Positions 1 to 54,537 of a stretch of 64,000 nucleotides of DNA are shown piece after piece (the stretch's first letter is position 1; each line of letters begins with the position of its first letter). Under the pieces are notes generated by a model. It did not search any database and was not told the origin of the DNA. It saw only the letters and a list, made by a program, of their open reading frames with translations. Origin of the DNA: Spirogloea muscicola (lineage: Eukaryota). The stretch covers positions 733,977 to 797,976 of the forward strand of contig WELB01000023.1 in assembly GCA_009602725.1 (NCBI GenBank), written 5' to 3'. The translations under genes and the position numbers were made by a program.

Positions 1-263
1 TCCCTCATCCTGCCACTGCTGCCAGGCCAGGTCGACAAGACCCTCATCGGCACTTCCGGCCATCCTTCCCCACCCCCCCATCCCTCCTGCTATGGATGCT
101 GCCTCACTCCTCCTCTAGCAGCTCCAGCAGGACAGGATGTCAAGGCCCCAATCGTGGCACTTCCAGCCCTCTTTCCCCCCCCCACCCCTCTATTGCTCCT
201 GGCACAGCTGCTGCCTCACTCCACTAGCAGCTCCAGTAGCTGCTAGATGCTAGCTGCTACGTC

Positions 264-665
264 ATAAGATGTGCTTACCTCTGTACTTGGCCATACTGGC
301 CTTCGATTGTTTCAAATACACAAGATTTCCCTTGAGACAAGCTGCCGCTTCTTCCTCTCTTGCGGGCGCCACTAACTCTGCATCCACTCTCGCCAGCGGC
401 AGCCTCACCTGCTGCACTTCGCAGACAATTAACAGCCGCTGGCACTTCGCAGCCACCGTCCTCGACTGAAAAACGTTCTCTATCAGCGTCGCCTTGTGCA
501 CACCGCAGGACTTTCTAAGTGGGCGTCCTATTACTGGCAACTGCGCCTAACCCTTGTCCATGATCCTTCAGCTGGCCCCTTACAATTACCTGATCTCCTC
601 CGGAATTCATTATTTTTTCTGGGCTGGCCTCTCACAGCCATCGCCCTCTGGTGGAAAGCGTCTAT
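264..665 (+). repeat. Degenerate 3'-end fragments of the CRE-like retrotransposon families
   Basis: GTGCTTACCTCTGTACTTGGCCA at about 270-292 matches the family-B 3'UTR at about 4533-4556. TTTTCTGGGCTGGCCTCTCACAGCCATCGCCCTCT at about 615-650 is the shared terminal hairpin unit. Confidence 0.6.
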
Positions 666-4099: not shown

Positions 4100-7000
4100 A
4101 ACGAGAGGCGCCTTTCCGGCGGCCAGTCTTTCTGACTTGCGGTTACTATCGAGAGGTTACGGAGAGAAGGCGCGCGGGGCGCATGAATTGAAAAGGGAGG
4201 CCAATTCAAGCCAATACATTGTTCAGGCAGAGTCGAGTGCAGACAAACTTACTGAGCGATAGTTCCTACGGGCAGTATTTTGGGAAAAGTACTTTGGGAA
4301 AGCGCTTGTCGGCCCCTGTTTAGCAGGGGTTACTGAGTAGTTAGTAGCTGCTTTGTTTCTTCTTGTGTGCTTCTTTCTTAGTGCTTCGCCTTAGTGCTTC
4401 GCCTGGCCCCCTTCTTCTTCTTGGAGGTTGTCGAGTGCCGCCCGGTGTTCGGGCATCAATTAGTGACCTCTATGTGCTGACTCGTGGTTACTGAGCGGGT
4501 CAGCTTAGCAGCAGGGTGACGTACATTTGTCAATGTGCTTACCTTTGTACTTGGCCACACATGGCCCTCCATCTCTTAATACACACTCCTTGCGTTCAAC
4601 AGCGTCGAGCGCAGCGCCATCGCCGAGGAGCTGCGAGCGGCCTTCCCGTCCCTCATCCCCTTCTTCCGCCTGGGCTACGGCCAGCCCAGCGACCTTCTAT
4701 GCCGGACAGGGAGTGGCGAGATGGAGACGCTGCAGTCGAGGACGGGCACACGCCAGGCGGATCCTCTAGCAGGGTTTTTCTTCGCGCTGGCTCACAGCCG
4801 CGCTCTCAGGGCCACTGCGGCGGCGCACCCCGGCGTCCTTCTGCCGTCCTACGCCGACGACACCACGCTCGTCGGCAGCCCGGGGGAGGTCTCGGCAGCC
4901 ACCGTCACCTTCCAGCAGCAGCTGGCCGCCCTTGGCATGACCATCCGCCCGGAGAAGTGTACCGCGTGGTCGCCGCGTGTCCTCCCTGCCGCCTTGCCCC
5001 TGCCGCCTGGGTGCCAAACTCCCCCAAGCGGCCTCACCATCCTTGGGGTCCCGTTCGGCACGCCAGCGTTCGTCGACGGGCAACTGCGCGTCCGCCTTCA
5101 GGAGCACCTCCAGCCAGTGGCCCGCCTCCCCGAGCTGCAGGACATGCAGCTGGCGCTTGCCATGCTCAATCGATGCATTGTGCAGCGTCCTCACTACTTG
5201 GCGCGGACGACCCCTCCCTGCCCCGCGGTGCTGGCGGCCTACACCACATTCGACGCGGGGGTCATGGAGGGCGCGGCGGCCCTCATCCGCCACGATGGCT
5301 TCCTTGCCTCGTCAGCCGCTACGCTCCAGGCCACACTGCCCCCTGGCCAGGGCGGCCTCGGCTGCCGCTCGCTCGCGCGCGTCTGCAGGCCAGCATTCCT
5401 CGGCAGTTGGGCACAGGTCGCCACGTCGGTGGCGCAGCGCTTCCTCCATGATGGGCGGCCCCTGCTGCAGCAGGTTGTGGAGGAGGTGGCGACTGGCTCG
5501 CTGCCTTTCCAGGAGGCCCTCCGCTCAGCCCAGGACGGGTTACTCGCGGAGCATCCGGCCCTTGCAGAGAGCGTGGTCCCCTTCGCTCACCTCGCCCACA
5601 CCTCCGACTCGCAGGCGCAGGCGCGATACATGGCTGCTGTGGACAAGGCGACGTTCACGGACACGCTGCAGCTCCTCCCCGCAGGCGACGTGCGCGGCCG
5701 TGCTCGGCTGCTGTCGGCCGCCTCCCCCGGCGCGGCAGCCTGGCTCTCTGCGCTCCCACTGTATGATGCGCTCAGGCTGCCGGACGAGCTGTTCCGCACG
5801 GCCACGCATCGCCTGCTGGGCCTCCCCCCGCCCTGCCTGCTGGGCGTGCTGCAGTGCGAATGTGGGGAGCGGTCGACGGACCCGGCGGAGCTGGCGGCGC
5901 ATCTCCTCCGCTGCGCCACTGGAGGCGAACGAACAGCTGCGCACGACCTCTTGCGTGATGCTATGTTCGGGATCTTTCAGGAGGCGGGCTACACGGTGGC
6001 GATGGAGAACGCCTCGGTCATGCCCATCCTCGAGAGGGCTGACGGACACCATACGCGTCGTGTGGACCTGGTGGCGTCCACGCCGGGAGGTGGCGCGCGG
6101 ATCATAGCCGATGTAGTCACCACCGATGTGGTCGACCGCTCCAACCTGGGGCTCTCTGCCTCGCGGGCCGGCCACGCTGCCTCGAAGGCCGCTCGCTGCA
6201 AGGCGGCCAAGCACTCCGACCACCCACCTGCCGACGAGTTCGTCCCCTTGGCGGTGGACGTGCACGGGGCTCTTGGGTCCCAGTGGCTTGACCTATTGGC
6301 TAGGCTTGCGCGGCGGGCTGTGTCCCGCAGACGCGGCGAGCCAGCCGACTTCAACGCCGCGGGCTCGTGGGCTCAGGTATATCGGATGCGCCTCTCTGTA
6401 TCCCTGCAGCGGTCCATGGCCCACGCTCTGCATCTGCGAGCTGGCCGTGCTCTCGCTGCGGGCTCTGGCTTTCGTCAGGGTGATAGCTTCCCGGCAGCTA
6501 GTCTGTCGGATCTGAGGCTCCTCACTCGTACTTATTGAGTGATCCATCCTCCCCCTGTTTTACCATTGCATCCTCAGGCCCCTTTGTAGCTGCTCACCGC
6601 TCTTAGGCCCCTCTGAACCTTTGTGAACTCTTTTTGGGCTGGCTTTTCGCAGCCCTTGCCCCCATTGGGAGTGCCACTTCTCTCTTCTTCTTGGGCTTCT
6701 TGTACTCTGCTCATTCTTTTTTGGGCTGGCTGTTCCAGCCCCTATCCTCAATGGCCGAGCTCTTTCTTCTTTTTGGGCTGGCTTTGTCAGCCACTCTTCT
6801 CTACGGGCGCGCTCTAAGTCAGGCCTCCGGCTTTCGTGGCGGCGCTCCAGCTCCCCAAGTTAGCTTGTCAGATTTGTTTGTGCTCACCCGTGGGTACTAA
6901 TGTCATCTTAGGTACCTTAGATTAGGTCTCCGTATTATGTAGCATTGTTTAGTCTGCACTCGACTCTGCCTGAACAATGTATTGGCTTGAATTGGCCTCC

Positions 7001-7131
7001 CTTTCAATTCATGCGCCCCGCGCGCCTTCTCTCTACGGGCGAGCACATCCGCTTGTCGGCCCCTCAGGACCTTTCTTCTCGTCATTGGCCTCCCATTCAT
7101 TTTTATGCGCCCCGCGCGCCTTCTCTCGTCA
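4100..7131. repeat. Nested cluster of retrotransposon 3'-end fragments (at least 4 families) in the PITH/LIP divergent intergenic region
   Basis: Peptide termini ASLSDLRLLSRGY (about 4123-4160), LSRGY* (about 4319-4336), SDLYVLTRGY* (about 4462-4494), SDLRLLTRTY* (ends 6538) and SDLFVLTRGY* (ends 6900). Direct repeats 4303-4317/7050-7064, 4413-4424/6683-6694, 6798-6809/7030-7041 and 7077-7084/7124-7131. Confidence 0.9.
4592..6682 (+). mobile_element. 5'-truncated CRE-like non-LTR retrotransposon (family A): RT, CCHC zinc knuckle, restriction-like endonuclease (RLE)
   Basis: Open frame 4592-6538 begins mid-RT at AFNSVERSAI and contains GTRQADPL (QGDPL-like), YADD, LGVPFG, GGLG, CECG-x10-HLLRC...HD, RRVDL...ADVVT...KAAKH and FVPLAVDVHGALG. 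An in-frame TAA lies just upstream at 4577. 3'UTR is about 145 nt. Confidence 0.92.
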
Positions 7132-7264
7132 CGGAATGAACGAGGTCCAAAAGGTCTGAAGGTCTCTTCATAGGGTCTTTTCATCAGCGGCAGCAACTGT
7201 CCTTCAGAACTCCGCCGACCTGTCCTCGCCGCCGCGCTCAGTGGCCGGCGCCGCCGTTGCGGCC

Positions 7265-9875: not shown

Positions 9876-10686
9876 CAGATGGATACACGTGGCTCAATCA
9901 CGTCAGATGCTGGCAACTCCTTGAGTACCTGGTCATCTCGGACTAACAGCAAGTTTACTCATCGCTTGTCCGAGCTGGACTACATCATTCAATTTCATAA
10001 CAGCTGATGATTGTCAGCTTCCCGGACAGGTCTGTTGCTTTAGTTAATGTCCCCTCGTTCAAAGAACGAATGACTAGATCGAAGTCGTCCCTAGATGGGC
10101 TATACACCTGCAGCAATCCTATCTTATGCCATACACGCTGTACAGAATTTTTTGAGAGCCCTGCACAAAGAGCAATCGAGTAAATGAGCTATTAAAAGCC
10201 TTCTGCCGTCATCAGGGCTTTAGGATTATGTGGACAATCAGATGCACCTGCACGACCAAGCAATCCAACATCTTCCTCCAATCTCCTTGCCCAACTGGTA
10301 CTTCCAAACCTACAGTACCGTAAGCAGGCGTTGGAAGGGAATGGCATCCAGCTTTGAAGATTGAGACAACATTCAAGAGGTTACTTGTGCAGGTGATGAC
10401 CCTTGCGGGTCAGGATTCACAGATCCAACAAGCTAGCATGAGAGCGAACAGACACACTGGCAGCTTGAATAACTGTACGCCCGACAAACAACATGATGAT
10501 ATACTAGCTATTATTCTGATAATCAGAGAGTGACAAAGTGTAATCAAAGTTCTCTTGACTCTTTCGGGTAGTTCATGAATAGCGCATTGATCATCATGTT
10601 AGTGCCTAGGAATCCATGAATAGAGTGCAGGTGTGCTTGCTGGTGAGCTTTTCAGTGGCAAGTGGCAACTGCCAATTGCACAGCTA

Positions 10687-19600: not shown

Positions 19601-20681
19601 ATCTTCAGGAGGTGTGTGAGACGAATGATCACCTGATTCAATAGAGCTAGACACGATGTAGATTGAGTGCGTCTTTATCTTCCTCTGTGAGGAGCAGAAA
19701 TCCAGATCATCAGCAAGGTGCAATCAAATACTTGCCAGAAAGCTTATGTTGCTTGGAGATGTGATGAGCAGGTCTTACCTTGATCAAGAAATGCTATGAC
19801 TTCGTGAAGCAGCAGCGGCCCCACAAAACAAAGTGCATCGTTTATGAGCTGCAAAAAGCAAGCCATGCAGAGAGAACGCTCTACAGGATCACAGACCACC
19901 TCTCATTCCAATGTGGGCTGGTGGAAGGATCTAGACTTCTTGGCGTCTGTCTGAAGTTGATACAAGCCAATATAGGGCAGGAGTTTCGCTCCTCTGACCG
20001 TGGTATGATCTCAGGATTGGAAAGTGCATCTTGCTTGACAATCAGTGGAGGACCATCATATGACAGCAGGCTGAGAATGCCTGCGACGAATTATCCAAAG
20101 GGGGTCCTGGCAGGCTGAGGTGACAGATGCCGTGGAAGGACACTGCAGTGCCTACTTAACCAGGCCGAGCATAACAGGCAGCCCACCTTGATCAGCCCGG
20201 CAGCTACAAACAGGTAGCGGTATCCATCAAACACGGCCCAGAGCAGATCGAGACTGCCGGAGTCGGGCCGCTGCCGGCCTGCCCACAGGCACCACAGCCG
20301 GTTGCCGCAGGCCTGCGGCTGCATCGCTTCCGGCAGCTCAAAGAGGTCTGCGAATTCCAGCTGCCGCTCCGCGCCCAGGGCCAGGAGGGGGTCCACCCAG
20401 GAGAACGTCAGCTGGCTCCAGACGGAGCGCTTGCCGGGACTCTGATTTCAGCAACAGGGCGAGGCGCACGGAAGTGAGAGGCGAGAGGAGCTCGTCGAGG
20501 CCAAGGGCGATGAAAGCAAGCTGCCTCGACCAAATCAGCAGCTCGAGTTGTGCAGAGGCTGGAAGATGGCTGGCAAAGGACGGGAGCGCGCCTGCCAGCG
20601 GCCTGCGGCGGAGCAAGGGCCGGCCTCCGCAGGCAGCAGCGGCTCCGCCGGGCCGGCGCCGCCGCCGCGGGCGCTGGCCAT
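10687..20681 (-). CDS. ABCC13: ABC transporter C family member 13-like (MRP), about 30 exons; possibly damaged
   Basis: [16 protein letters not shown]...[92 protein letters not shown]. The start codon at 20681 is inferred through a GC-AG intron. Confidence 0.9.
14825..14843. repeat. Short interstitial plant-type telomeric repeat (CCCTAAA)n in an ABCC13 intron
   Basis: CTAAACCCTAAACCCTAAA, about 2.7 units. Confidence 0.6.
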
Positions 20682-20914
20682 CGCCGGCGGGCTGCTGCGG
20701 CGGCAGTGCGTCGTCGCAAGGAGGCGGGAGGGCCGCAGCTGGCCCTCAACCCTTAGCGTTAAACCCTACATCCGGACCAGCCGCCTCACCTGCCGCCGGC
20801 GCGGCCGGCGCCGCGGATGCGGCCGCCACGCGCGGCGCAGCGGCGCGGAGAGGCCGGAGAGAGACTGCGGCTGCAGTAGGTACGGGGCGACTGTGGAAGT
20901 GTGAGCTACACGAG

Positions 20915-23215
20915 CGGAGAATTGAGTGTGTATTGGGTGCTGGAAGGTCTGAGTGGCTAACTACAAAGGCAAGCACATTGACGAATGTACACATAGGGGG
21001 TCCCAGCGAGCCCGTATTTCTGCTGCCGGGGGAAATCCCGTCAGCGGTGACGCTGACCCAGCCGCTGACGCTTCGGGCCGCCTGCCGAGCTGAGCGACTG
21101 CAAGACTCAGATGGGCAATGCGCGCATGAGATGGAAGCAAACAGCTCGTCCGTTGTAAGGCAATGGCTGTGAGAGGCCAGCCCAGAGGAATGTACAAGGG
21201 CTGCAAGGGCAGGAAGCCGCTAAAAGCAGGATTCTATTTGCCGTGACTCCTGCAAGTGGGCTCTCAATAAACTCTAGTCAGCAAGTGCGGATCAGAGTGA
21301 GTAGAGAGCGAGAAGCGTCCCCCTGAGGTGAAAGGTAGGCCAAGCCGAGCACGTCCAAGCGCTGCGCACTTGACTTAGTCGCGGATCTCGGTAACGAGCA
21401 TGATATCCGACACCTTTATTCGCCTTCATCACTTGACACTTCCATGGAGAAGAGAGAGCGCGATTCGCGTATATTGAAAAGGGAGGCCAGTTGGGGCGAT
21501 GATTATGACGGCAAGACCCGAGGCACCCCACGTCCCCTCTGCAGCCTGCCATGACGGCCTTCAAGCCGGGACCGGCCCCCTGGCCAGCCCCACGCACCTG
21601 CGCTGGCTGTGGGCCTTCTGGCTCGGAGGCCCGTGGCCAGCCCAGAAGTGGCTGTGCAGCCCATCCTGCTGCGACCATCGCCGGCCTGCTACGGTAGCAC
21701 CGGCCAACACGCCGTCACTGAACGATGCGCTAGCGGCCATGCACAGAGCTGTGCTCCCTCTCCAAGCCCAGGACCCTTGGATCATCACCATCCTTGAGCT
21801 TCAGCCAGGCAGGCCTGCGCAGCCAGTCGCCTACTCGTAGGCCCAGCCTAATGCTTGTGTAGCCTGCTCGCAGAGCCCTGAAACGTCAATTTCATATCCA
21901 GCACAACTTCGAGCTCGTGCCATTGCCGTCCATGCATGCATCGTTCACTTACAGCGCGGCCAGGCCAAGACGCAATTATCTGGTAGCGCAATGAGTGAAA
22001 GTCTTTTCGTCCGCCCAGATGCGTGGGCCACTGCAAGAGGTGATGCGCACCAGGTCGACGTGCCATGTGCCCGTCAGCAAGTCGGCACGGTGCCGTGGAC
22101 CTCTGCACGACTTGGTAGGCAGCCTCTTGGAATAGGCCGAAGGTGCCGTTGCAATAAAGCACCGTAATCGGCTATTGCTCGTGGCCATGCTGCGCAGCGC
22201 AGCATGTGCGCCGCAGTATAGGGTGGACGATTGCGCTTCTACAAGGACCTACAACGTGCTCATTGCGTGCTCACCACATGGAGAACGTTGAGGTCGCAGG
22301 CGAGATGGAATTGAGCCTCTTGCTTATAGCGGGCGGGTGGCAAGTCCCCAGCCTGTGCCCCCTGTACCGTAATCCTAAAGCTCCAGGCTTGGGTTGGCAA
22401 GGAAGCCTTATAGATAAGGCTATGCTGGACGTAGCCTTAATGAGGAGCGAACACTTTTAGAACGATGTAATTCTTCCATAAGGGCGATGGCAATGTCGTG
22501 CCGCCCATTAGACTGAACCAGGTCCAAAGAGGTCAGAAGGCGAGCACCACTCAGGAAAGAAAGGGACCACTAAGGATGGCGACTCACCTGATCAGCAGCC
22601 GCAAGTCGGAATGTCTAGCAGCCAGACAACAAGTAAGCTCTTCTGAAGGGGCGATGGCCAGGAAAGGCCAGCCCAAAGGGAGTTGACAAGGTCCACAAGG
22701 GGCCTGAAAGAATAAGGTAAACCAAAGACACAGCTCCTTACAAAGTAAGTAACAGCTTTCTCAATGTAAGACAGTAGCTGTGAGAGGCCAGCCCAAAGAA
22801 AAATGACTCTTCCAGTAGAGGGCGATGGCTGTCATTGAAGAAGTGGCACTCTCAATGGGGGCAAGGGCTGCAAAAAGCCAGCCCAAAAAGAATTGACAAA
22901 GGTTGTCATTGGCCAAAGCATAGAAAAGAAAGAAGAAAACCCAAAGCCCAAAGGAATGAACAAGATCGGAGAGAAACGCTCTTTCCATGTAAGGCAGCTT
23001 TTGTGAGAGGCCAGCCCGAGGAATGTACAAGGGCCGGAAAGGGCAGGGCTGTGAATGGCCCGCGAAAAGAGAGAAGCTCTACTCAAGGGGGCGATGGCTG
23101 TGGAAACAGGCCCAATGCAGTAAAACAAGAGAAGCAGCCCCACGGCGGGCGAGGGCTGTAAAGGAAATTGCCGCCCATGTAGAAGTGGCTCTCCCGCTAT
23201 AAAAGCCAGCCCGCC
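20915..23215 (-). repeat. Cluster of CRE-like retrotransposon fragments, including a decayed endonuclease-region copy and a tandem array of 3' ends
   Basis: Family-B 3'UTR at about 20915-20992. SDPHLLTRVY* at about 21263-21300. Degenerate FGLFQEA...ADGH..R.DLV at about 22050-22145. SDLRLLIR at about 22585-22612. Repeated GGCTGTGAGAGGCCAGCCC-type units at 22640-23215. Confidence 0.8.
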
Positions 23216-23379
23216 ACGAGAGACCTCTTGGAGCGCCAATAGAACGTCAATGGCGTCGGGTTCGTGGCCGCACCAGCCGCCGCCGCCGTTTTCACGGTTC
23301 TTTCCACCGTTTCCATCCCAGTACAGTACTTGTCCACTACCGGTCATTCGACAAAGCTGATTTCATCGCGTAGGAGCTG

Positions 23380-23408
23380 GCCACGTGTAGACACGTCAAC
23401 CGCCACGT
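23380..23408. promoter_or_regulatory. Triple ABRE/G-box cluster
   Basis: GCCACGT (23380), GACACGT (23390) and GCCACGT (23402), which read ACGTGGC/ACGTGTC on the minus strand, about 360 bp upstream of the ATG at 23768. Confidence 0.55.
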
Positions 23409-23767
23409 CGGACGGTCCACCACCGCGCCCCGTCTGTCAAGCACGCAATGTGGGCGCCGCCGTCGTTGGCGAGGCGGCGGCTTCCTCTGGCCCTCAACGG
23501 CACTAGCTGGGAGCTGATAGATGGGAGCCCCGTCTTGTTAGTGGCGCCCACACTGCGTCTGCGTCTGCGCTTGCCGCGGCCTGAGGCACCCGCCTGTGCG
23601 GCACTCTTGCGGTGAGGTCCTCGTCGGCGTGGGCCGGCCCTGCGCCTGGCGTGCGGCTCTGCGGCGAGGCTGCGCTTGCGGGCTGCCCAGCGGCAGGAGC
23701 TGGCGTGGTAGCCACGCCGGCAGCGACGCGGAGGGTAGGCGTGGTAGTGGGAAAGCAGAGGGTAGGC

Positions 23768-37668: not shown

Positions 37669-39809
37669 TCAACGCCCCTCCAGACTGCAGGCCCCCTCCT
37701 CGCCGCAATCCAGTGCACCCCATCGAGCATCGACTTGGCGGCATGGAAACTGAGGCTTGTCGAGGCTGCACGCAAATGCAAACAAATGAGAAGGATCAGT
37801 GCTGAGGGATCAGCAGAGAGCAATCACAATGCATGGGAGCTTGCCAAGTCAAGGATAACCTCCGGTTGACGATGTTGTGAACCCTGCACATCCACTGTGC
37901 AAGCTCCACTCCTGACCCTGTTTGAGGTGGACTGGACCTGTGCTCAGAATAGCGCCAAGATCAGCCACCTCATCAACTGGAAGTTTTGATAAGCCAGAAC
38001 GCAGACACTAGACAAGGAACACAACGGCTCCCTCATGCAATAGAAAACAAGACATACTACACTATCGACTTCCTCCAGACCGTTGATTTCTGAGCTTCCT
38101 GATTGGAGAGTGTAGGGACGAACTTGAGTACTTCTTTGAAATGGTCCGCACATTGCTTGCAAGGATATATCCTTGTCATCAGGCCCATCTGCACAAGACA
38201 CGGATTTGCGCATGAAGTTGGCATATGTCGACTCAGACCCACCTGCAAGCCTCTGAGCCGTATTGAGCACCCTTTGATATACAAATAACAGCAACTTAGC
38301 CTTAGCAGCACTATGTAGGATGCTCAAGTAGGATGGCAACGAAGTAAGTGACTGCAAGTCTGCTGTAGACACCACTTTGTCCTGCATACCAAGTCTTTCA
38401 CATCCCTCTGCTGCTGTTTCGTGGGCTTGTCGGGAAACTGCCATCAAGATGGATGAAAGTCAGCACACGCATGACCATTCATGACGAAATAGCTCACAGT
38501 GACCAGCAACATCTACGACGGGAGCAAAAGTGGCGATTGCATGCTGATTGAAATCTTCCACTTTTCTCCAGTATGGGCATCAAGCATGCTCAACTTTGGC
38601 TTCACAGCTGTGCTTGTTGAGCCAGCTTCGCAGAGCTTGTGCAGCTTTCTCATGCAAATCACGTGCAGCTTGCTGCAAGCAAGGAGCCACTAGGCAGCAC
38701 ACACTGGCAAGACATTAAGCCTCACCTGAGCAGCCAGCGTGTGCAGAAGCGTCCACGTCGCAACCCCCAGCTCTTCTCTTGTCACGGCACCGCCAGAGCG
38801 ATCATGCGACTGCAAGGCCAGTCACAAAGGTGCGGCCTCAACTACAAATTTCAACCGATAGTCCTCCTAGGCAACAGCTCAACCATATGACAGTCTGTCT
38901 TTTTCTAGCTTGCAACATGTGTGCTGATGAAGACCTTGCCTGGCTGTGCGCCAGCCCCGCACTGAAGTCATAATCGAGCTCGTCATGTGCCCGTGGAGGT
39001 GGCGGCAGCCTGTCGAGGTAGCCCGCATCAGTGTCCCAAGCCTGCAGCACAGCGAGCATTATGAGGACCGACTGCTGCCGTAGCTGCTGCCATGGCAGCT
39101 TCCTCAAAAGTGACTCCGCCAACAAAGAGCGACGTACAATGAGCCAACCTCGGCAGCCATCCAAATTATTAAGTCTGACTGAACAGCAGGCCGAGACGGC
39201 GCTACAGCCCTTCCTTAGAGCTGCCAGGACGGCCATGCGACAGAAATACTGCTCATACGCCGACCTGGTCAGTGGCACCCGGCGAGATGCCGCCGTAGCG
39301 GTCCTGGCCGGCAGATGCTCGGCTCGCCTCGAGCCAGGGGGCCCCGGGCTTGCCGCCGCTGGCAGGCACCGCCACCTCCACAACGGCCTCGCTTGCCGGG
39401 TGCACGCTGCGCCTCCGAGAGCGAGGGCGCTGCGAGCCCATCCTGTCGTCGTAATGGGGCCCTGCCGACATGACCGCCCGGCCGCCGTCCCCCCCCCTGG
39501 CCTGGCCCGGGAGGGCTTGCACGAAGAGCCGCGCGAGCTGCGACCTGCGGTAACGTCCGGAACGCGCGGCCAGCGGCCCGGCCTTGAGGCCTCGCCTCAA
39601 TTGGAGACGGTGCACGTCAAGCGCCATGAGCGAGCGCCGACCGAGCAGAAGCGGCCGCTCCTGTGGCCGAAGTGGCCGCGGGTTCGAGGGCTTGAGCGAG
39701 CGGCCAGCCGCGCGGACCTGGCGCCGGCGGAGGCGGCGGCGGCGCGGCGCCGGAGGTCGTCCCATGCGGCGCGCGCGGCGTCGAGGGGCCCTCCAGGCGG
39801 CGCTGCCAT
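37669..39809 (-). CDS. ERV1: Erv1/ALR FAD-linked sulfhydryl oxidase with a long N-terminal extension
   Basis: TREELGVATWTLLHTLAAQFP, IYPCKQCADHF, WMCRVHNIVNRSLDKPQFPC, C-terminal CGEEGAC. The N-terminal exons are less certain. Confidence 0.9.
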
Positions 39810-39861
39810 CGCTCGGGAGGCTGCAGCTGCGCAGGAGCTGAGCCACTGACTCGGCCCAGGA

Positions 39862-40275
39862 GCGGAATGGAGTGTGGATTGACTGATGGAGAAAGAGCTC
39901 GCCCATTGAGGATAGGGGCTGGAACAGCCAGCCCAAAAAAGAATGAGCAGAGTACAAGAAGCCCAAGAAGACGGGGGCCAGGCGAAGCACTAAGGCGAAG
40001 CACTAAGAAAGAAGCACACAAGAAGAAACAAAGCAGCTACTAACTACTCAGTAACCCCTGCTAAGCAATCGCAGGTCAGAGAGGCTATGTTCCTGGAAGG
40101 AGGGCTCCAGTGGCCAAGTGACATGGCAAGCGTCGACAGACGTGCATGACCTGCTGCTAAGCTGACCCACTCGGGGAACCACGAGTCCGCACGTAGAGGT
40201 CGCACTAATGCCCAAATACCTGACGGCAATTGACAAGCCCTTTGTGCCACCAGCTAAAGCTCGACCAGAAGCCTA
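39862..40275 (-). repeat. Family-C 3' end nested in a family-B 3' end
   Basis: SLSDLRLLSRGY* plus UTR (about 40097-39890) is near-identical to 4319-4424 joined to 6695-6766. It interrupts the family-B UTR between GCCCTCC and ATC...CACACTCCATT. Confidence 0.85.
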
Positions 40276-40435
40276 GCAAATCCACTTCGTGGTTGGGACA
40301 GTACAAGGCAGCAAGTAGTGGTGACTAGTCGATGCCCGAAAACAGCATATACCGCGCGAGCCCAGCCAATCTTCAGCTGCACCGGCGCTCTCTCGCAGCC
40401 CCGCCGTCGGCAATGCTGCAGCCCGCGCCGCGGGC

Positions 40436-41877
40436 ATGGCGGAGAAGCTTGCGCCCACGGCGCGCCACGAGCTCGTGCACCAAGGTGCGCCGCACACGGC
40501 AGCCCTTTCCTTTCCTGTCCTTTCCTTTCCATTCCACGCTTGGCAGTGGGCCACCCTGTGCTGCATGTTGCTCGTGACGAGGACATCCTGGGCCGTCCGG
40601 CCGCAGGGCGGGTGGTGCTGGAGTGGGACCAGACGGTGGAGGAGGTGAACCTATACGTGCCGCTGCCGCCTGGCGCGCGCGCGCGCCAGGTCTTCTGCGA
40701 CATTGCGCCGCGCAGCATCGCAGTCGGCCTCAAGGGCGCCTCCAGCCGCTACCTTGATGTGCGTCAACACCTCTCCTCCTTCACGCCTGCCATGTAGTGC
40801 TGCCTCCTCGTGTTGGTCTGGACTTGGGAGAGACTGCACCGCACTCAGGAGAGTTCGGAAGCAAGCAGAGTATCGGCTGGGACGCAGACTGACTGGGCAT
40901 GGGGGCCTTCTCTGCCTACACTCTGGCCTTTGAGTACTGTGATGAAGCTCAATCCTAGCTTCTTGTATTCATAGCCTAGACTAGCATGTCAAGAAGTCTT
41001 TTTAGCACAAGTCCAGAATGATGTGAGCTGTTGACTCTTAGAGACATGAGAGACTAAATATTACCAGAGTGGTATGTCAATCGGAACTCACGTGCTGAGT
41101 GCTAACGGTTGTCGCCAGCTGTACGTACTCCGTTCTGACTGAGCAGATGGGTGGCCCATGACAACAGCATGTTTTGGAGGCGGCGGTGAAATCGTCCGAG
41201 TCTTTCTGGACGATAGGTAACACTTTGAGACTCCTGTTGCTATCACTCCATTCCCTATCACCAGCTTGAGCATTCGCTGGGCAGTGGGTGAAAGCCCTTG
41301 ATGTCCTTTCCTCAGGGCAGTTGTGGCATATGCTGAAGCTACATTCTGGTTGTGATCATGCAGAGGACGGTGTTTTGCATGTCACCTTACAGAAGGTCGA
41401 GAAGGCTCACTCGTGGACATCCCCTCTTGCGGGACAAGGCCAGCTTGATCCGTACTCTGCCGATATGGAAAAGCGGCGTCTCCTTCTGGAGCGTTTCCAG
41501 CTAGAGGTACTTCCAGTAAAACCTTGCCGTCTCATTTGATTGCACTAGGCAATTGGAGGCTGCATGTGCTCACTGCATGTGTTACCGTGATTGAAGCTTT
41601 TCAGCAATCACCAATGCGACCATGACATGAGCAAGCTGTGTATCTAGCTGTTGTCACGTGTTCACTGCTTCTTTGGTTCTCTGAGCAAAGCGTGGCAGCT
41701 TATGGATGGGTGCTGTCTTTCAAGTCGGGCCAAGCGTGTCCAGCATGTCGGCATGTTAATGACCATCGAAGCTCGTTGATGCAGCATCCTGGCTTTGATT
41801 TCTCGGGGGCCAACGTCAACGGCGCCTGCCCAGACCCTGACCAGTTCATGGGAGGACTTGGGGGTCATGTTGAGTGA
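40436..41877 (+). CDS. NudC-domain (CS/p23-like) protein, NudCD2-like, 5 exons
   Basis: MAEKLAPTARH, EWDQTVEEVNLYV, SFWTIEDGVLHVTLQK, LLLERFQLEHPGFDFSGA...PDPDQFMGG. Confidence 0.9.
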
Positions 41878-42874
41878 TTCCAGGCATGAGCAATTGAGCG
41901 AAGGTAACGGGCTCAGCATGAAGGCTGAACAGTTAGTCTCACCCATATGTGCTCATCACCAACGCTTCCTACTGGAAGATGTTGGACAAAGCGATGGCGC
42001 TGCATCATGGTTGTACTCAGGCAGAGAAGGATATGCATAAGCAATTTCCAGTTGGCAGGCAATGTTCAACGAGTTGAACATTGCAGCAGCTTCCAGCCTG
42101 AAGCCATGGGTTCGTCAAGGTTGGATGCCACTCTGGGCTTGCAGCTGAGATCGGCAAGCAGCAACTTCTGCTGGAGCATGGCAAAGTCGAAGAGTCGGAC
42201 CTGAATGCCCATCCGAGCCCTTGATAGGGCTGCGCAGCTGCATGGCGGAGGGCTTGCCTATCAGCTAGTGAAGGGTGCTTTGTGATTCCTCTTGCCACCC
42301 ATTGCCATCTTTTACTCCACTCTTCTATTCAGCTTGTGCTTGTTCTGGGCCGTCCTCATGAGCAGGATGGCTGCCAGGCGAGAGGCATGGGTGGTGGTGC
42401 ACCTTGCCCAGGATTTTTCCGAGAGACAGCAGCTTAGAATTTCTCTATCAAACATTTTAGACATAGCTCAGAATCCATGCCTAGTAGAAGGCACACATAC
42501 ATGGCTTGCTTGACAAAATGCGAGCAGATTGATTCTAAATGACGACTATACACCCAATCAAGGGATGCTCAAGTTGATGCCACAGAGCAGGGGTAGCACC
42601 AGGAATAATGAGGAGGGGAGGAAAAGGTTGGCAATGTTGAGGCTGGGGACTAGGGCTATCGTGCAGCAAAGAAGATGGGAGGTGACACTACAGATTGGAA
42701 GGAGGGCCCGTGATGACCAGCACAATGCCTTACACAAGGCAACAAATATTTCCAGTTGGCAGAGGCTAGGATTCTACTGATGATGGCTTGATTGATGTGG
42801 AAGCAAGTAAAACCTGGCATGGAAGAATAGGCCAATGCAGCTAAACGCAGCTCCAGCGACATTCAGCAGTCCTC

Positions 42875-43455
42875 AGGACGGAGGGCCTGAGTGGCCAAGT
42901 ACAAAAGCAAGCACAATATTAAATACATCACCTGCTGCTAAAGTGACCCGCACAGTACCACGAGTCAGCACGTAGAGGTCGTTAATTGATGCCTGAATAC
43001 AGGACGACAATTCACAAGCCCTCATGCCACCAGCGAAGGCTCGACTAGCTTTCTGGTGCAAAGCATGAGCCTAAAAGAATGAACAAGGTCTGCCAGGGCC
43101 GGAAGGCGAGGGGACGAGGGCGAAGGCGAAGGCGAGCAAGCGAGGGCTCTGACCAGCCAGCCCAGAAAATGGACAGGGACAAAAGTGGGATACACCAATC
43201 CCGACGAACTTCCAGAGAGAAATCAGAAGCAGCAGCTAAAGCGCGGCCTGCATCGCCTGACTCCGGAGAGCTGTTTCCCGTCGCTGACTCGTAGTTACTG
43301 AGCGGGTCAGCTTAGCAGGGTACGATTCTCCAAGACGTCAGCAAGTGGGCGCTCCATTAACCTCTGGTCAGCAAGCGAAACCTCAGCTTTGCTTAGCAGC
43401 AGGTGATGTACATCTGTCAATGTGCTTGCCTTTGTACTCGGCCACTCAGGACCTC
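42875..43455. repeat. CRE-like 3'-end fragments in both orientations upstream of the peroxiredoxin
   Basis: HQKASRAFAGG...NDLYVLTRG (minus strand, about 42880-43061). GCTGACTCGTAGTTACTGAGCGGGTCAGCTTAGCAG (plus strand, about 43283) resumes at about 43391 after an inverted insert. Confidence 0.8.
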
Positions 43456-43657
43456 CATGACTCATCAACACCCGATATAATACTTTCTTCATCATTTCCC
43501 TTCTCTCTCTGCCCTACGTGAGCACCCTGACGTCTCAGCCTCCTTTTATTCTTCCGATTCTTTAATATCAGCAGCCGCTTTTGTTTTATCCAGCACGCTT
43601 CTTTATGAGCACAGCCGCGCTGAGCTGCCGTGCTTCTCCTACCCCGCCCTCCCAGCC

Positions 43658-45424
43658 ATGGCTGCCGCGCTTTGGGTCCTCGCCGTCGCCGCCGCAGCCG
43701 CCACCGCCGCCGCCGCCGGCGCTGCCGAGGCGCCGCCCGCGTCCNCGCCGCCGCTGGTGGGCGGCAAGGCGCCGGACTTCGAGGCGGAGGCGGTGGCGGG
43801 CGGCGCGGTGGTGCGCCTGCGGCTGTCGGACTACCAGGCGGCGCGCAAGTACGTCGTCCTCTTCTTCTACCCGCTCGACTTCACCTTCGTCTGCCCCACC
43901 GGTGAGGCCTTCCTTCCGCCGTCGCCGCGGCCGTTGCTGCTGGCCCCTCCCGCGCCTTGTGGTCGCCACCCCAGCGCCTGCTTTGGTCACTGCACTGGGC
44001 GCTGAACCCCACGACAGACCAGCACGCGTTGTCAGCCCCCTCCTCTGCGCCGCCGTCTGCCTCGTCGGCCACACCTTCGGGAATTACGTGGGCCGCACTC
44101 GGCCTGTCCTGGCCGGCCAGCTGAGCTGTGGTGTTGGAGCTGCTGGACTTGGCAGTCTCCCCTCACCCATCCCGCAGGACCTTGCAAGCAAAGAGTGGCC
44201 AACAGTGGGGTCCGCCTGGCACGGCGTGCCTTGCCCTTGCCTTGCCTCTGACTGTGTTGAGGAGCGGAATGGGGTCTGGCCTTGCAGAGATCACGGCGTT
44301 CAGTGACCGGCACCAGGACTTTGTGGACCACAATGCGGAGCTCTTGGGCGTCAGCGTCGACAGCGTGGTGAGTATCGCAAGAAGCTATTCCAATTGCTAC
44401 ACTGTTTGCCCTTGTGCTCCGTCAGCCTGTGTTCATAGCTGGAAGTGGCTCCTGTAAAATTGACTTGTCGTTCTAGTCAAAATACACATACCAATCCCAG
44501 CTATTTTCCAGCCTATCTAGCCTATTGAGGCTGTTCAAAAATCAATATGTCAATTTTGGCACTTAGCAAGGTCTTTGCTCATCTGGGTGTGATGCGGCTC
44601 CATTTGTCCTTCCGCTGCTCGTTTTATTGGGCTCACAGGAGCTGATTCAGCACCTTTCAGACCACTTTAGATGACTATACCATGCCGACTTGCAGCCGCT
44701 CTGAACACTACTGGCGTGCTTCCTCATTGCCCTTCGCAGTCTGAAGGCACTTTCATGTGGCAAAGAGATCCTTATCTAGGGTCCTGTTCTCCTTCTTCCA
44801 GTTCTCGCACCTTCAGTGGACCCTGACAAAGAGGTCGGAGGGAGGAGTTGGCGACCTCAGATATCCACTGGTGTCTGACCTGACCAAGAGCATCTCGCGC
44901 TCGTACGGCGTGCTCCTTCCGGACCAGGGGATTGCCTTGAGAGGCACCTTCATCATCGACCCCGAAGGCGTCATACAGCACTCCACCATAAACAACTTGT
45001 CCCTGGGGAGGAGCGTGAATGAAACCCTCCGGATGTTACAGGCCATCACCTATGTCCAGGTAATGCAAAGATTTTCAGTATGACTTAAAGTCCTGAGGCT
45101 TGTCGAATAGTATGTCAAGAGCATCTGTTAAGCTTGAACACACACACCTCTGGGTTTCTTAAGTGACGAAGCCACCAATTCTGGCGTCATTGGCTGTTTC
45201 CAGCAAGTTTGAAGCGGATATGTTACCTTAGCCAGTGTTGAACAGCACCGTAAGCTGTGCTGCTGTATGCGTGCTCACTATCCAACTCAAGGATGCAGGA
45301 GAATCCAGAGGAAGTTTGTCCAGCTGGGTGGCAGCCAGGAGAGAGGACAATGAAGCCTGACCCAAAACTCAGCAAAGATTACTTCCATAGTGTGCATAGC
45401 CAACAGGCTGCTGCAGCTTCTTGA
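43658..45424 (+). CDS. Typical 2-Cys peroxiredoxin, 4 exons
   Basis: [50 protein letters not shown]. Confidence 0.95.
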
Positions 45425-50092: not shown

Positions 50093-50374
50093 GTCGCGGC
50101 GCCGCGGCCCGGACCCCGCCTCCTCCTCTCTCTCCACGCAGAGGCGAGAGCCAGGAAGGCGGCGACGGCCGGGCCGGCGGCGGCAGCGGGAGGCGAGCAG
50201 GAGTGGGAGCGCCGAGGATTGATCGCCGCGCCGGCTCGCGAGAGAGACGGGGCAGTCGGGGTGCTCGCGGCGGGCAGGCCACCATTCCAGGCGCCGCCGA
50301 TGCCAGGGCACCCGCGCTGACCGGACACCAGCCACGCCAGCCGCCCCTCCGCTTCGCCTCTCCCATCCCCAGCG

Positions 50375-50930
50375 CTTTCGAGGCCCCTTCGGACCATGTC
50401 CGTTCTCGTCGGGCTGGCTTTCCACAGCCCCTCGCCTTCTCTCCTTGTACAGTATTGGCATGAATTGGCCTCTCTTTCATGCGCCCCGCGCGCCTTCTCT
50501 CTTGGATTAGCTTACTTTACATTTATTGGCGCGCAGTGCCCAGTGGGCCCCTCGCGAGAGGACCTGGCCAGGTGACATGGCCTTCTGGGACCGAGAGCCC
50601 GTTTGCCGTTGGCAGTTGCACTAGACGCTGGCGGTCACCAATGGCAGCCTTCCGGCCCTTCTTCCGGCCCCTTCGGACTTTGTCTCGGCTTCTGGGCTGG
50701 CCTTTCACAGCCGTCGCCCCCGTTTGAGAAGACCGTTCTTCCGATCCTTTTACTGGTACTGGCGACGAGCGTCCTCCAGCTCACGTGCCCTGTTCGTGCT
50801 TCCCAGCTTGTGCTGGCTTGTCACCAAGTACACCTTACAGGTGGCTGTGAAAGAAGAGAGCTCTTGTGAAAGGCCAGCCCCAATTGAGAATGGACAAGGT
50901 CCGAAATGGTCGGAAGGGGCAAACGACCAA
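50375..50930. repeat. CRE-like 3'-end units upstream of SGF29
   Basis: GGGCTGGCTTTCCACAGCCC at about 50411; family-D end ATTGGC...CATGCGCCCCGCGCGCCTTCTCT at about 50454-50501; further units at about 50694 and 50843-50882. Confidence 0.75.
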
Positions 50931-51968
50931 TTTAATTTCCGCCACACAAAAGCACTCGTGTTGGTACCTCCACTTTTTATCCTGGGAGCCCCGACTTTCT
51001 CGTCACTGCTCGCCTTGATCCACTTTGTGCTTGCAGTGAGTAAACTTTTGCCTACCCGCTTGCTCGACGCATGGGCAGCCGCTTCATGCGCACATACCCG
51101 GGGCCCGGGTCCCTTCCTGCTGCTGCTGCTGCTGCATGAAATACTAATATTGATGCAGCAGCTATGACTGCTTACTTCGACATGTTCTGCACTGCTGCCG
51201 TAAGTGAGAACTACCATGGAGTACTGCATGCACAATGAGTTGACATGTTTGCTCACAATGAACTGCACCTGAATGGGGTGCATGGCGGTGCCATTCTTTA
51301 CAGGAACAGCAACTAACATTGTGCTCAATGTGATCTTCAACTCGGTGTGCATGTGCTCCTTCTTACATAGTGAACTCATGTAAAGCTGGGCACCATGACA
51401 TTAACAAGATCCTCTTTGTGCAATTTGTGAGGTTCAAAAGCTTCTGTCCGTCTTATGGGCATGGCAAAAAGACAAGCAGAATGATGTCCATAGTGGCAAA
51501 CACTCGATGCTTTCCCTGCAAGTCATCCCTCTTCCAACCCTCACCAGCTCTCCCTCTTTTGTCTCTGCCCAAGTGTTGTCACATTCTTCCTCTCTGTTCT
51601 TCCTCCCGTCGTCCCTCGACTTGCAAACCCCCTCAGTCCTCTCACCTTTTTGTCTCTGATAAGAGCCGCCTCTTTGCGATATCATCATGACACTACCTGC
51701 CATGCTCTCAATATATTAAGACAAGCAACGTATGATACCTAAGACAAGCACTGGAAGGGGCAAAGGCAGCCGCCAGCGCTTGGCCTAACGGATGAGCTCA
51801 CTCCATTCTAAGATGTTGACAAGGAGCTGCCACAGATTTAGACACACAGAGACGATTGCAGTGCCAGGTGCCATGATGTATGAGGTCAAAGATTAACCAT
51901 CAAATGTCCGATTTTTTGAGTGGCAAGAAAAAGTGCCCACAATGGCATTAGATAAGCAATGCAGTCGT

Positions 51969-52833
51969 CTAATGTTCTGCCTTTGCACAGTGCTCCTTGT
52001 AAGCACTTTCGTCGAGCAGGGAGTCTGTGGCAGATGTATCATCCAACTTCACCTTCATCATCCACCCTTCTGCAAATGGGTCATCGTTGACCTGCCACAA
52101 GTTCCACTTGCGAAGCATGTAAGGTACACAGCGGAGTCTGAAGATGAAGATAGGTCAATCCAGCAGCCATAGCTTCTGAACAGAAGCAGCGCTGACCTTT
52201 CCAGGCGAACTCTTTAGCTCTTCATTGATTTCCACCACCTTTCCCGAGACAGGAGAGTAGACATCGCTTGCAGCCTTCACGCTCTCTACCACTCCGAATG
52301 GCTCGTCCTTGGTAACTGTAGCCCCAACCTCCGGCAGCTCCACATAGACTATTTCACCAAGCTCAGCCTGTGCAAAATCGGAGATCCCTACAGTGCCGAT
52401 CTCGCCATCCAGCGCAATGTACTCGTGGGACTTGAGGTATCTCCGGTTCTCTGATGCTGTGTGGAGCATTGGTCAATTCCAATATCTCTCAATGTCCACC
52501 TCAGATCCCATGTCATTTGAGCACCTGCTTGATCATCTCGAGGTGACAAGAAGTGGTGCAAGCAATGCTTCTCACATACAGGAGGCGTAGTGGCGGCTGA
52601 GCAGAGCGAGCCGTCCATCCACGGGAGCGAGGCAGCGCACCCTCAGCTGGCAAGCCACCTGAGATGCAAGCAACCTGGTTGCGCACAATGCAGGGTGTTA
52701 TGAGGGGGGTGTGATAGAGGCTTTGAGGCTTGGTAGCATTTCTCGTGCAGTTCAAGCAAGGCACTGCAGTCCTGCTGGAATGCCGATCGAGTGCGACCAC
52801 AGGCAATGCAGGGCAGAGTTACCGGACGGCCAT
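51969..52833 (-). CDS. GDCH: Glycine cleavage system H protein, mitochondrial, 4 coding exons
   Basis: KSHEY, GISDFAQAELGEIVYVELPE, lipoyl motif VESVKAASDVYSPVSG, VNDDPFAEGWMMKV; presequence MAVRLLASQVA...SRHYAS. Confidence 0.95.
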
Positions 52834-53834
52834 CTTCGCTCTGCCTCTGGCAAAGACGGCCTGCGAAGCGCCTTTGTCCCCCGGTGGCGGATCGCGGCAG
52901 ACACCAAAGACCTGCCGGGCCGGCGCGGTCAGGAGCGCCGCAGTCGCTGCGCGGGCAGGAGGCGCCGCCGCCGCCGCTCGACACGCGCAGCCGAGTGGGG
53001 TACGGCGCGAAACTGAAACCCTCGGATTGAAGAGACACGAGATGTGGAAGGGGCCCCCGCTTGACGGCTGTGCCGCTCCCGGCAGTCAGCTCCTGGCCAA
53101 TACAGTAAGCGGTTCCCTGAGGGGGGGGGGGGGGCCCGGTAATGCGAAATGCATGAGGAGAATATTGGCTCGGTTTGGTCTCACAGTCTATTTTCCATGT
53201 CCGGTGTGCTCCTTTCTCGATAAATCCGCGTCAAGTGGCCCACCATCCCCGCTTGCCGCAGGGGAAATGCAAGGACGAGATACCCCCCGGCCCCCCGGCG
53301 CCGCCCATTCCCGGGGCGTTATCCACGGCCTGCCTGCCGTTGCTGGTGGTGGCTGGCGAGACGGGTGGCCGGCGAGAGCGCCGTCGTGGGAGAACGCGAG
53401 ACGTAACGAAAAGGGTGGGGAGAAGAAATAGAGCACTTCCAAACGGGGAGTGGCGACGCGGGTCCCCGTGGCCGCACGATGGGGCTGCGCTCCCCGGGAG
53501 GGGGCATCCTGCCGTCGGATGGCAGGACCCCTATCCGGCTCCCCCAGCGGCGCCACGGCGGCGGCTGCACGCTGGCCGTCGTGGGGCCCGCCGGAGCGAA
53601 GCGAGCGGCCGTCAGCCGGGGATCGTCATTGGCGTTCGTCGTTCCCCTCAGCGGCGGCCTTCGTCGGGGCGTCGTCGGGGCGCAGCTGCTGGCGCCGCTA
53701 AGCCCGACAGTGGTGGCCCGAGACGAGCCCCCCGCTAAGACGGGACGAGCGCTACTGGCTCCTCGGCCCTGCCGTCGTTACCCCGGTGCTCCATGAAGCT
53801 CAGAAGAAGCTCAGTGAAGCTTTTCCCAAGGCTG

Positions 53835-54388
53835 AAATTGGCCTCCCTGTCCTTTGCTTCTCTCTCATTTGCATGCGCACCGCGCGCGCCTTTCTTCCAA
53901 AGTGGGCGAGGGCTGTGCAAAGCCAGCCCGAAAGAGGGAAGGCGCGCGGGGCGCATGAAATGAAAGAGAGGCCAATTCAAGCCAATACATTGTTCAGGCA
54001 GAGTCGAGTGAAAGAGAGAGTGACTATTCCAGTAGAGGGCGATGGCTGATTGGCCACCCCATGAACAGAAATTGACAAGGTCCGAAGGGGCCGTAAAGCT
54101 CAAAGCTGACTTAGGTCCAGCTTAAGGAGGGATCGTGTATTAGAAAGAAATGTAGGCCAAATGGCCAGGTACAAAGGCAAGCACATCTAAAAATCTACAT
54201 AACCTACAGCAGATTGACCCGCTCAATAACCACGGGTCAAAACATAAAGGTCACTACTCGATGCATGAATACTAGATGCCAGGAACGGAGCCCTTCTGCC
54301 ACCTACTAGAGCTCGCCCAGCTTTCTGGTGCAAGGCACTAGCCTGAGCACGCTGCAAACAGGCCGAAACTCGACGTCGCAAGAGCGAC
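53835..54388. repeat. CRE-like 3'-end cluster between GDCH and aldolase
   Basis: Family-D end at 53937-54009 flanked by GAAAGAG (53930-53936/54010-54016). Family-B-like LRRRVSACLQRAQASALHQKAGRAL...SDLYVLTRGY* on the minus strand at about 54388-54223. Confidence 0.85.
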
Positions 54389-54491
54389 NGAGCTTAGAGA
54401 CCATCAAGCCCTTTCGCCAACCCTTTCTTACCGCCCCGTCTCGTACCTCAGTTGCCGGAGCATCCGCCGCCGCCGCCGCCGCCGCCAACGC

Positions 54492-54522
<31 letters not shown>

Positions 54523-54537
54523 GCCCGGCCCGCCACC

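Follow-up and report, generated by a model that had tools for sequence, protein, structure and literature searches.

We analysed a 64,000-nucleotide stretch of the Spirogloea muscicola genome (assembly GCA_009602725.1, contig WELB01000023.1, positions 733,977 to 797,976; hereafter the window) and found that truncated 3' ends left by retrotransposons that lack long terminal repeats (non-LTR) and carry a restriction-like endonuclease (RLE) are confined to the promoter side of its genes, a confinement that holds for this window only. Thirty-seven of 39 fragments lie in divergent or tandem (promoter-side) intergenic regions, and the other two (438-481 and 598-666) belong to a cluster at the left edge of the window. 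We favour, at about even chances, an insertion preference for promoter-proximal DNA that is reinforced by insertion into earlier copies.

Retrotransposon fragments lie on the promoter side of genes

An initial annotation of the sequence had marked eight clusters of repeat fragments upstream of genes. Comparison of the window with itself by blastn returned 14 repeated intervals: 12 inside these clusters, one tandem duplication (23-239) and one palindrome (34550-34726). Profile scans with a cut-off of E<1e-3 gave 42 calls, which became 39 fragments after two split calls were merged (body and tail of a family D copy; body and open reading frame (ORF) of a family C copy) and one call was dropped. 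A tblastn search with 62 element proteins matched seven intervals, every one in the clusters. By these three approaches all eight clusters are real dispersed repeats. The 39 fragments sum to 6137 nt, with a median length of 69 nt and a range of 32-2096 nt, and 30 of them are no longer than 110 nt. The dropped call, at 38616-38699 on the minus strand within the Erv1 gene span, matches the end of the family C ORF (16 bits, E 2e-4) and was set aside because of its ~60% identity and its single-copy depth bin. It may be a chance match or one very old intronic fragment, and is the sole candidate exception to the absence of fragments from introns.

The 16 genes in the 64 kb (including an uncertain gene 6 and a putative gene 13) delimit 15 intergenic regions, of which six are divergent, three tandem and six convergent. 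Fragments occur in eight of the nine promoter-side regions and in none of the six convergent ones (Fisher p=0.0014). Exclusion of the doubtful spacer between genes 13 and 14 gives p=0.003, and the least favourable gene orientations (gene 6 on the plus strand, gene 13 on the minus strand) give 8/11 versus 0/4 (p=0.026, calculated by hand). For random seeding of eight in non-repeat intergenic DNA, 7.0 of 12.7 kb of which is promoter-side, the probability that all eight fall on the promoter side is 0.0085, and it is far lower with introns counted as available DNA. Profiles, tblastn and self-comparison gave no credible fragment in the ~43 kb of gene span. Hence the proposed absence from convergent spacers and introns stands, and the comparison of divergent and tandem with convergent regions that had been suggested as a check bears it out within the window.

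Cluster edges lie ~35-190 bp from six start codons: 52 bp for Erv1 (39862 versus 39810), 151 bp for aldolase, 181 bp for PITH, ~193 bp for Prx, ~35 bp for gene 4 and 90-138 bp for the lipoyl synthase gene (LIAS). The distances originally given for Erv1, aldolase, PITH and Prx were reproduced. The wider statement that each cluster stands directly 5' of a gene is right for these six genes but too broad for the TPT-family transporter (~625 bp) and GcvH (~1.1 kb). Similarly, the span 20915-23215, first read as fragments throughout, consists of two clusters (2a and 2b below) on either side of a single-copy stretch at 21835-22501. This stretch has no Pfam or element similarity, and because its depth is 0.68 of the median it is possibly absent from one homeologue.

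Copy number was checked on 20501-40500 only, using the contigs of one DNA run that cover 76% of the words of 32001-42000. In this interval 21 of 30 bins lie near the median summed depth of ~420, eight stand at 75-1998x single-copy depth, every one overlapping clusters, and one, over a GCC microsatellite, is at 8x the median depth. All introns and both convergent spacers in the interval are single copy by depth. These bin depths indicate that the families are high-copy in the genome and that 20501-40500 holds no hidden high-copy intron repeat. Elsewhere in the window the absence of repeats (other convergent spacers, introns of the ABC transporter gene) was judged from within-window similarity, profiles and tblastn.

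The fragments derive from RLE-bearing non-LTR elements

The open frame 4580-6538, which belongs to a family D copy, encodes the C-terminal half of a reverse transcriptase (RT) with its YADD box, a C..C..H..C motif and a PD-(D/E)xK-like site; it has no N-terminal RT half, and the copy is therefore 5'-truncated. In an alignment with 10 relatives C426, H441 and C445 are invariant, and the D, D/E and K of the PD-(D/E)xK site (D of RVDL, D of ADVV, and K) are conserved. The Pfam domain RVT_1 scores 28.6 bits in the truncated copy, slightly below the 29.6 cut-off, and 26-91 bits in 10 full-length relatives. Among 11 relatives RVT_1 is the sole credible Pfam domain; searches of these 11 proteins with the Pfam library alone gave no apurinic/apyrimidinic (AP) endonuclease, and no match to a Pfam zinc-finger or Myb domain. 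A zinc-finger-like CxxC...H...H/C motif was seen, by eye only, in the N-terminal part of two proteins, P0003 and P0004.

An AlphaFold model of the 652-residue fragment (predicted local distance difference test score, pLDDT, 77) has R2 proteins as its top seven PDB matches, over ~700 columns and the whole fragment including the C-terminal part (E 2.6e-12 to 1e-9), whereas LINE-1 ORF2p aligns over 317 columns only, in the RT part. R2 also ranked first in a PDB sequence search, and R2 proteins are the only structurally solved relatives. The frame with RT, CCHC motif and PD-(D/E)xK site, the RVT_1 relatives and the R2-matching fold lead us to assign the element to the RLE-bearing non-LTR retrotransposons. 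Sequence and predicted structure thus support the first identification of the fragments as 3' ends of such elements. Other traits of the class are present as well, namely 5' truncation, target-site duplications of 7-11 bp (two events) and the lack of LTRs.

The best protein match of the retroelement ORF is eukprot SM000129S26142, identical at 108 of 109 positions in one stretch, and the next-closest relatives are dozens of Closterium proteins. Full-length relatives are single ORFs of 1000-1400 aa. A profile search of 1.84 billion representatives returned 8037 clusters at E<=1e-30. Ten relatives that were looked up lie on contigs of 3.6-33 kb, nine of them below 7.3 kb, and the ESM Atlas with the cluster look-up gave RVT_1 clusters only.

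The families number at least four (BE, C, D and F); they were recognised through the common pattern S(D/E)Lxx(x)L(T/S) / L(T/S)R(G/T)Y at the end of the ORF, typically ...SLSDLxxLTRGY-stop, and they have pyrimidine-rich 3' termini:

Family BE: ORF end LLSRGY-stop.
Family C: ORF end VLTRGY-stop.
Family D: ORF end LLTRTY-stop.
Family F: ORF end FVLTRGY-stop, terminus GCGCGCCTTCTCTC.

As judged from the reading of the clusters and the profile matches, fragments keep the 3' terminus and vary in their 5' cut-off point. Many units of 32-80 nt with GGGCTGGC...CAGCC are D-like tails; 25 units match a profile made from 14 of them, 23 in the noted clusters and two at 438-666. When folded as RNA the BE tail beats its shuffles (z -3.4) and the D, F and C tails do no better than theirs (z -0.3 to -1.6); a common 3' hairpin signal is therefore not established. 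A metagenome scan for the tail motif gave a single match, a chance one, in an unrelated contig of 51% GC with no element protein.

Young insertions are nested in older tails

Two young insertions were resolved. In the first, the BE tail found whole at 40095-39891 occurs in cluster 1 as two halves, 4312-4419 and 6684-6766, separated by a C tail (4424-4589) joined head-to-tail to a D copy (4590-6686). BE positions 129-136, TCTTCTT followed by GG, appear at both junctions. That one duplication encloses both the C and the D piece is consistent with their arrival together, through a template jump, or with two hits at the same point. In the second, that intact BE tail itself lies within a C tail (40090-40270 and 39862-39889) with CTCC[A/T]TC on both sides. 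Both target duplications are 7-11 bp long and lie at pyrimidine-rich sites inside older tails, and both insertions share the orientation of the host tail. Across the clusters orientation switches in only 6 of 30 adjacent pairs (p=0.0007).

Genomic contigs repeat both kinds of joint, head-to-tail and tail-to-tail. Among 15 listed joints, seven connect variable truncation points with the BE terminus at 39890, in one case across opposite strands. The public gene model P0003, from another locus of the same organism, is 1499 aa long and strings together five or more truncated pieces of elements, all oriented alike, which indicates that such arrays are being annotated as genes.

The clusters and their pieces are as follows:

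4100-7175, cluster 1, between PITH and lipoyl synthase: nested array of at least eight fragments, seven on the plus strand.
4162-4249, minus strand: family F tail in reversed orientation, 98% identical to 6949-7033.
4312-4419, plus strand: left half of the family BE tail split by the C and D insertion.
4424-4589, plus strand: family C tail (ORF end VLTRGY-stop and 3' untranslated region, UTR), head-to-tail with the truncated D copy.
4590-6686, plus strand: 5'-truncated family D copy of 2.1 kb, with 3' UTR ending GCCACTTCT.
6684-6766, plus strand: right half of the split BE tail, 99% identical to 39890-39971.
6816-7033 and 7035-7126, plus strand: two family F tails, the second shorter, both ending GCGCGCCTTCTCTC.
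20915-21500, minus strand, cluster 2a, beside the first exon of the ABC transporter gene: C terminus 20919-20991, D-like unit 21139-21207 and F-like piece 21451-21492, at 75-182x single-copy depth.
22500-23215, minus strand, cluster 2b, upstream of gene 4: a row of six same-strand D-like tail units, at 356x single-copy depth.
25915-26870, minus strand, cluster 3, between gene 4 and TPT: family C copy 26165-26869 (RLE domain, ORF end and UTR) and short units, at 471-982x single-copy depth.
32715-33680, both strands, cluster 4, between gene 6 and the zf-UBP gene: plus-strand units up to 33072, then minus-strand units and a D tail at 33363-33649, meeting tail-to-tail, at 564-1998x single-copy depth.
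39862-40275, minus strand, cluster 5, between Erv1 and the CS-domain gene: complete BE tail 39891-40095 inside a C tail (40090-40270 and 39862-39889), at 1559x single-copy depth.
42875-43465, both strands, cluster 6, upstream of Prx: C tail 42876-43074 (minus), one unit, and C termini 43281-43319 and 43386-43463 (plus).
50375-50930, both strands, cluster 7, upstream of gene 12: D-like units 50387-50434 and 50671-50739 (plus) and 50865-50905 (minus), and F terminus 50446-50501 (plus).
53835-54388, both strands, cluster 8, upstream of aldolase: F terminus 53835-53893 (plus, by eye), followed on the minus strand by a unit, an F tail, another unit and a C tail.
1-700, plus strand, left-edge cluster missed by the initial annotation, downstream of PITH, its left neighbour gene outside the window: C terminus 266-322 (E 0.0012, which fails the cut-off) and D-like units 438-481 and 598-666.

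The left-edge cluster also contains the tandem duplication, whose copies at 23-130 and 128-239 are 73% identical.

Explanations for the confinement

The reading that we favour, an insertion preference for promoter-proximal DNA with reinforcement by insertion into earlier copies, draws its advantage from three observations: the fragments are of a size that introns tolerate, the youngest pieces are already biased, and eight of nine promoter-side regions were seeded against none of six convergent ones. The elements would insert by target-primed reverse transcription, in most cases breaking off early, and a share of each array would be laid down in a single event, through a template jump from one element RNA to the 3' end of another. 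The target would be picked by a feature of promoter regions, such as open chromatin or initiation-associated factors, rather than by sequence, and some tail sequence could then be taken over as core promoter, of which the TATA-like motif of gene 4 is a candidate.

Several points weigh against this reading. It comes from a single 64 kb window, and all the young insertions lie inside older copies, so that promoter targeting and self-homing are confounded. The concordance of orientation is expected of strand-specific homing or template jumping, not of chromatin targeting alone. No fragment occurs in one of the promoter-side regions, the spacer upstream of PCNA (36640-37900); the TPT start codon and the GcvH coding start stand ~625 bp and ~1.1 kb from their own clusters; and the left-edge cluster sits downstream of PITH, its other neighbour lying beyond the window. 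The gene models are predictions from Pfam matches on ORFs and a codon-usage score, and genes 6 and 13 are uncertain. An Erv1 intron may hold one old fragment, at the weak match 38616-38699. Finally, cluster 3 may be transcribed in part, either within a 3' UTR or from the side of the element, because a 741-nt contig of run X5, which is only guessed to be RNA, matches 25470-26210 with zero mismatches and runs from unique DNA downstream of gene 4 into the tail units of cluster 3.

Retention without targeting is the strongest alternative, though an unlikely one. Near-random insertion would be followed by purging, through selection or deletion, of copies from introns and from UTR-filled convergent spacers, with untranscribed promoter-side copies persisting, some as parts of promoters. 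The high gene density (16 genes in 64 kb), the large share of promoter-side spacer taken up by fragments (~8.4 of ~13.9 kb) and the TATA-like motif in a tail unit, which suggests co-option, all agree with it. However, most fragments are only 32-110 nt long and should be tolerable in introns, yet the ~43 kb of gene span has no credible one. Furthermore, the five pieces that have a 95-99% identical partner (two BE, three F), the youngest in the window, are all within clusters already, although five is a small number. To our knowledge promoters are in general no more tolerant of insertion than 3' spacers, which we also count against retention.

Self-homing without promoter preference we hold to be slightly less probable still. 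Here the endonuclease or the priming step would recognise the elements' own pyrimidine-rich 3' UTRs, arrays would grow from a surviving first copy, and the promoter position would be a by-product. Such homing is favoured by both resolvable young events, each lying in an older tail of matching orientation, at TCTTCTT and CTCCATC respectively, and further by the concordance of orientation, the recurrent head-to-tail and tail-to-tail joints in genomic contigs and the density of CTTCTTC, which is 3-4 times higher in clusters than elsewhere. It leaves the seeding of eight of nine promoter-side versus none of six convergent spacers unexplained, and the cluster edges adjoin unique DNA ~35-190 bp from the start codons. 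Retention and self-homing both stay live because the young events all fall within older copies and only 64 kb has been seen.

It is improbable that the elements simply seek a short motif, such as the CT-rich tracts common at plant-type transcription starts, in the manner of microsatellite-specific RLE elements. The element termini and both target duplications are indeed pyrimidine-rich. In contrast, CTTCTTC, TTCTTC and CTTCT are similarly frequent in gene spans, convergent spacers and non-repeat promoter spacer, the former two of which are fragment-free; for CTTCTTC the densities per kb are 0.37, 0.18 and 0.29, against 1.19 in clusters. A short CT motif can, on this sequence evidence, favour nesting but cannot explain the empty gene spans and convergent spacers.

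Targeting of multicopy RNA genes (tRNA, small nuclear RNA (snRNA), spliced leader or ribosomal DNA (rDNA)), as by CRE/SLACS, R2, Utopia and TRE5-A, is the usual habit of RLE-bearing clades according to the accessible part of one survey (PMC4640811) but is contradicted in this window and can be practically dismissed, given that ARAGORN found no tRNA gene, and Rfam no family (rRNA, snRNA or spliced-leader) at gathering score, anywhere in it, and that flanks are mixed. Genomic copies have heterogeneous flanks: 115 contigs leave the repeat at 39890 with an agreement of 0.38, and at five other places 62-117 contigs each give 0.40-0.63. The lack of a tRNA or Rfam gene in the window together with the mixed flanks leads us to reject a fixed target. 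The earlier proposal of promoter targeting without a fixed sequence is therefore sustained as to the mixed flanks, the lack of an RNA gene and the bias within the window, but targeting is not separated from homing or retention.

Tail sequence as possible promoter DNA

With cluster edges ~35-190 bp from six start codons, core promoters presumably lie at or in tail-derived DNA. One candidate motif is the following:

23198-23204, plus strand: TATAAAA, ~52 bp before the gene 4 start codon.

The motif arose where a D-like tail unit lost 14 nt. To judge from sequence, tail-derived DNA may thus act as core promoter, for example through this TATA-like motif. The conserved tail core TGGGCTGGC (6635-6643 and other units) includes TGGGCT, which may resemble 'site II', a promoter motif of plants to which TCP factors bind.

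A more far-reaching picture would be that R2-like long interspersed nuclear elements (LINEs) of the algal sister group of land plants integrate at RNA polymerase II (Pol II) promoters via chromatin or initiation factors, with thousands of abortive nested insertions rebuilding most promoters and supplying TATA boxes. We regard this picture as tentative and rather doubtful.

Relation to known elements

The R2 elements of Bombyx mori, Taeniopygia guttata and Platysternon megacephalum (PDB 8gh6, 9nl3 and 9nl2) share with the window element a single ORF of the order RT-linker-CCHC-PD-(D/E)xK, a fold that in the prediction aligns across the whole 652-residue fragment, and 5'-truncated copies. They differ in using one 28S rDNA site, whereas the copies in the window stand beside protein-coding genes, with mixed flanks and no rRNA match; identity to the window element is ~14-15%, and no Myb domain was detected by Pfam in 11 relatives of the window element. 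Template jumping is known for the R2 reverse transcriptase. The CRE clade (CRE1/2, SLACS, CZAR; MoTeR, Cnl1), to which the initial annotation likened the elements, similarly has its RLE C-terminal to the RT, and the N-terminal zinc-finger-like motif seen by eye in relatives recalls it. In contrast, its members occupy spliced-leader genes or telomere repeats, both missing from the window, where no Rfam family was found and flanks are mixed.

That RLE elements are typically sequence-specific, as assumed at the outset, needs qualification. The accessible part of PMC4640811 describes four of five RLE clades as mostly target-specific, and the fifth, HERO, as holding many families that are non-specific for one target sequence. 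HERO thus resembles the window element in its RLE and in the lack of a single target sequence, but the same part of that source (PMC4640811) reports no promoter-side bias for it. The lack of a fixed site is, by itself, not new because HERO holds many non-specific families.

Upstream integration at a fixed short distance via the transcription machinery is described, in the portions of the sources available, for the non-LTR element TRE5-A of Dictyostelium and for Ty1/Ty3 of yeast (PMC5391098, PMC3159450, PMC5911963), which like the window element are retroelements of gene-dense genomes found upstream of transcription units. They differ in targeting Pol III genes, whereas the neighbours in the window are Pol II genes and there are no tRNA genes. 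TRE5-A carries an AP endonuclease. Tf1 of Schizosaccharomyces pombe and the P and MULE DNA transposons prefer Pol II promoters or gene 5' ends. The DNA transposon mPing has a similar preference. Unlike the window element, these four are LTR elements or DNA transposons with an integrase or transposase and no target-primed reverse transcription. Zepp of Chlorella forms nested same-orientation arrays of 5'-truncated LINE tails like those in the window, but is of L1 type, has poly(A) tails and occupies telomeres or centromeres rather than promoters.

In the literature searched we found no description of promoter-side RLE LINEs, nor of LINE targeting in Spirogloea or Zygnematophyceae. RLE LINEs serve as the standard example of sequence-specific retrotransposition, and present R2 gene-insertion tools are built on them. 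If true, the choice of Pol II promoters with no fixed sequence would give RLE machinery a new mode of targeting, promoters in an alga closely related to land plants would be built largely from transposons, and this would bear on the turnover of regulatory DNA and on the annotation of such genomes. If retention or self-homing alone is at work, the window is still a clean case of confinement of LINE debris in a compact genome.

Gene map and other features of the window

The window is gene-dense, with GC-rich exons and AT-richer introns. Genes were called by Pfam on stop-to-stop ORFs of at least 70 aa, and short exons were consequently missed. The search covered 395 of 413 ORFs; the 18 left out all lie within the long lipin exon at 59.5-62.6 kb. 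Pfam gave strand and identity for 12 genes, and a codon-usage score trained on exons of these genes set the strands of genes 4 and 12:

Start codon 3919, minus strand: PITH (Pfam).
Start codon 7265, plus strand: lipoyl synthase, LIAS (Pfam).
~10.8-20.8 kb, minus strand: ABC transporter (Pfam).
23.25-25.8 kb, start codon 23250, plus strand: gene 4 (codon-usage score).
Start codon ~27495, plus strand: TPT-family transporter (Pfam).
31.4-32.7 kb, minus strand (uncertain): gene 6, a small open frame seen by eye only.
Plus strand: zf-UBP gene (Pfam).
35240-36640, minus strand: PCNA (Pfam).
Start codon 39810, minus strand: Erv1 (Pfam).
Start codon 40437, plus strand: CS-domain gene (Pfam).
Start codon ~43658, plus strand: peroxiredoxin, Prx (Pfam).
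Minus strand: GcvH (Pfam).
47.4-50.3 kb, minus strand: gene 12 (codon-usage score).
50.9-51.8 kb: gene 13, of doubtful existence and orientation.
Start codon 54539, plus strand: class-I aldolase (Pfam).
57.2 kb to past 63.8 kb, minus strand: lipin (Pfam).

GCC/GGC trinucleotide tracts occur at the 5' ends of several genes (27355-27445, 32510-32580, 43678-43755 and 54444-54536). The window has four single N bases, three of which (27415, 43745 and 54389) are in or beside these tracts or a cluster edge; the fourth is at 33833.

Two segments of ~61-65% GC, 52700-53835 and 26870-27300, lie between a cluster and the next gene and match no element protein or repeat; in the first, 14 consecutive G stand at 53121-53134. 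Candidate identities for the two are exons that went unannotated, long 5' UTRs and very old remains of elements. An origin of 52700-53835 from an element ORF found no support in tblastn with the 62 element proteins.

The palindrome at 34550-34726, in the convergent spacer between the zf-UBP gene and PCNA, is an inverted repeat with arms of 59 nt that are 59 nt apart and 86% complementary in perfect register. It is single copy by depth and could represent either a hairpin that acts as terminator or a lone foldback element.

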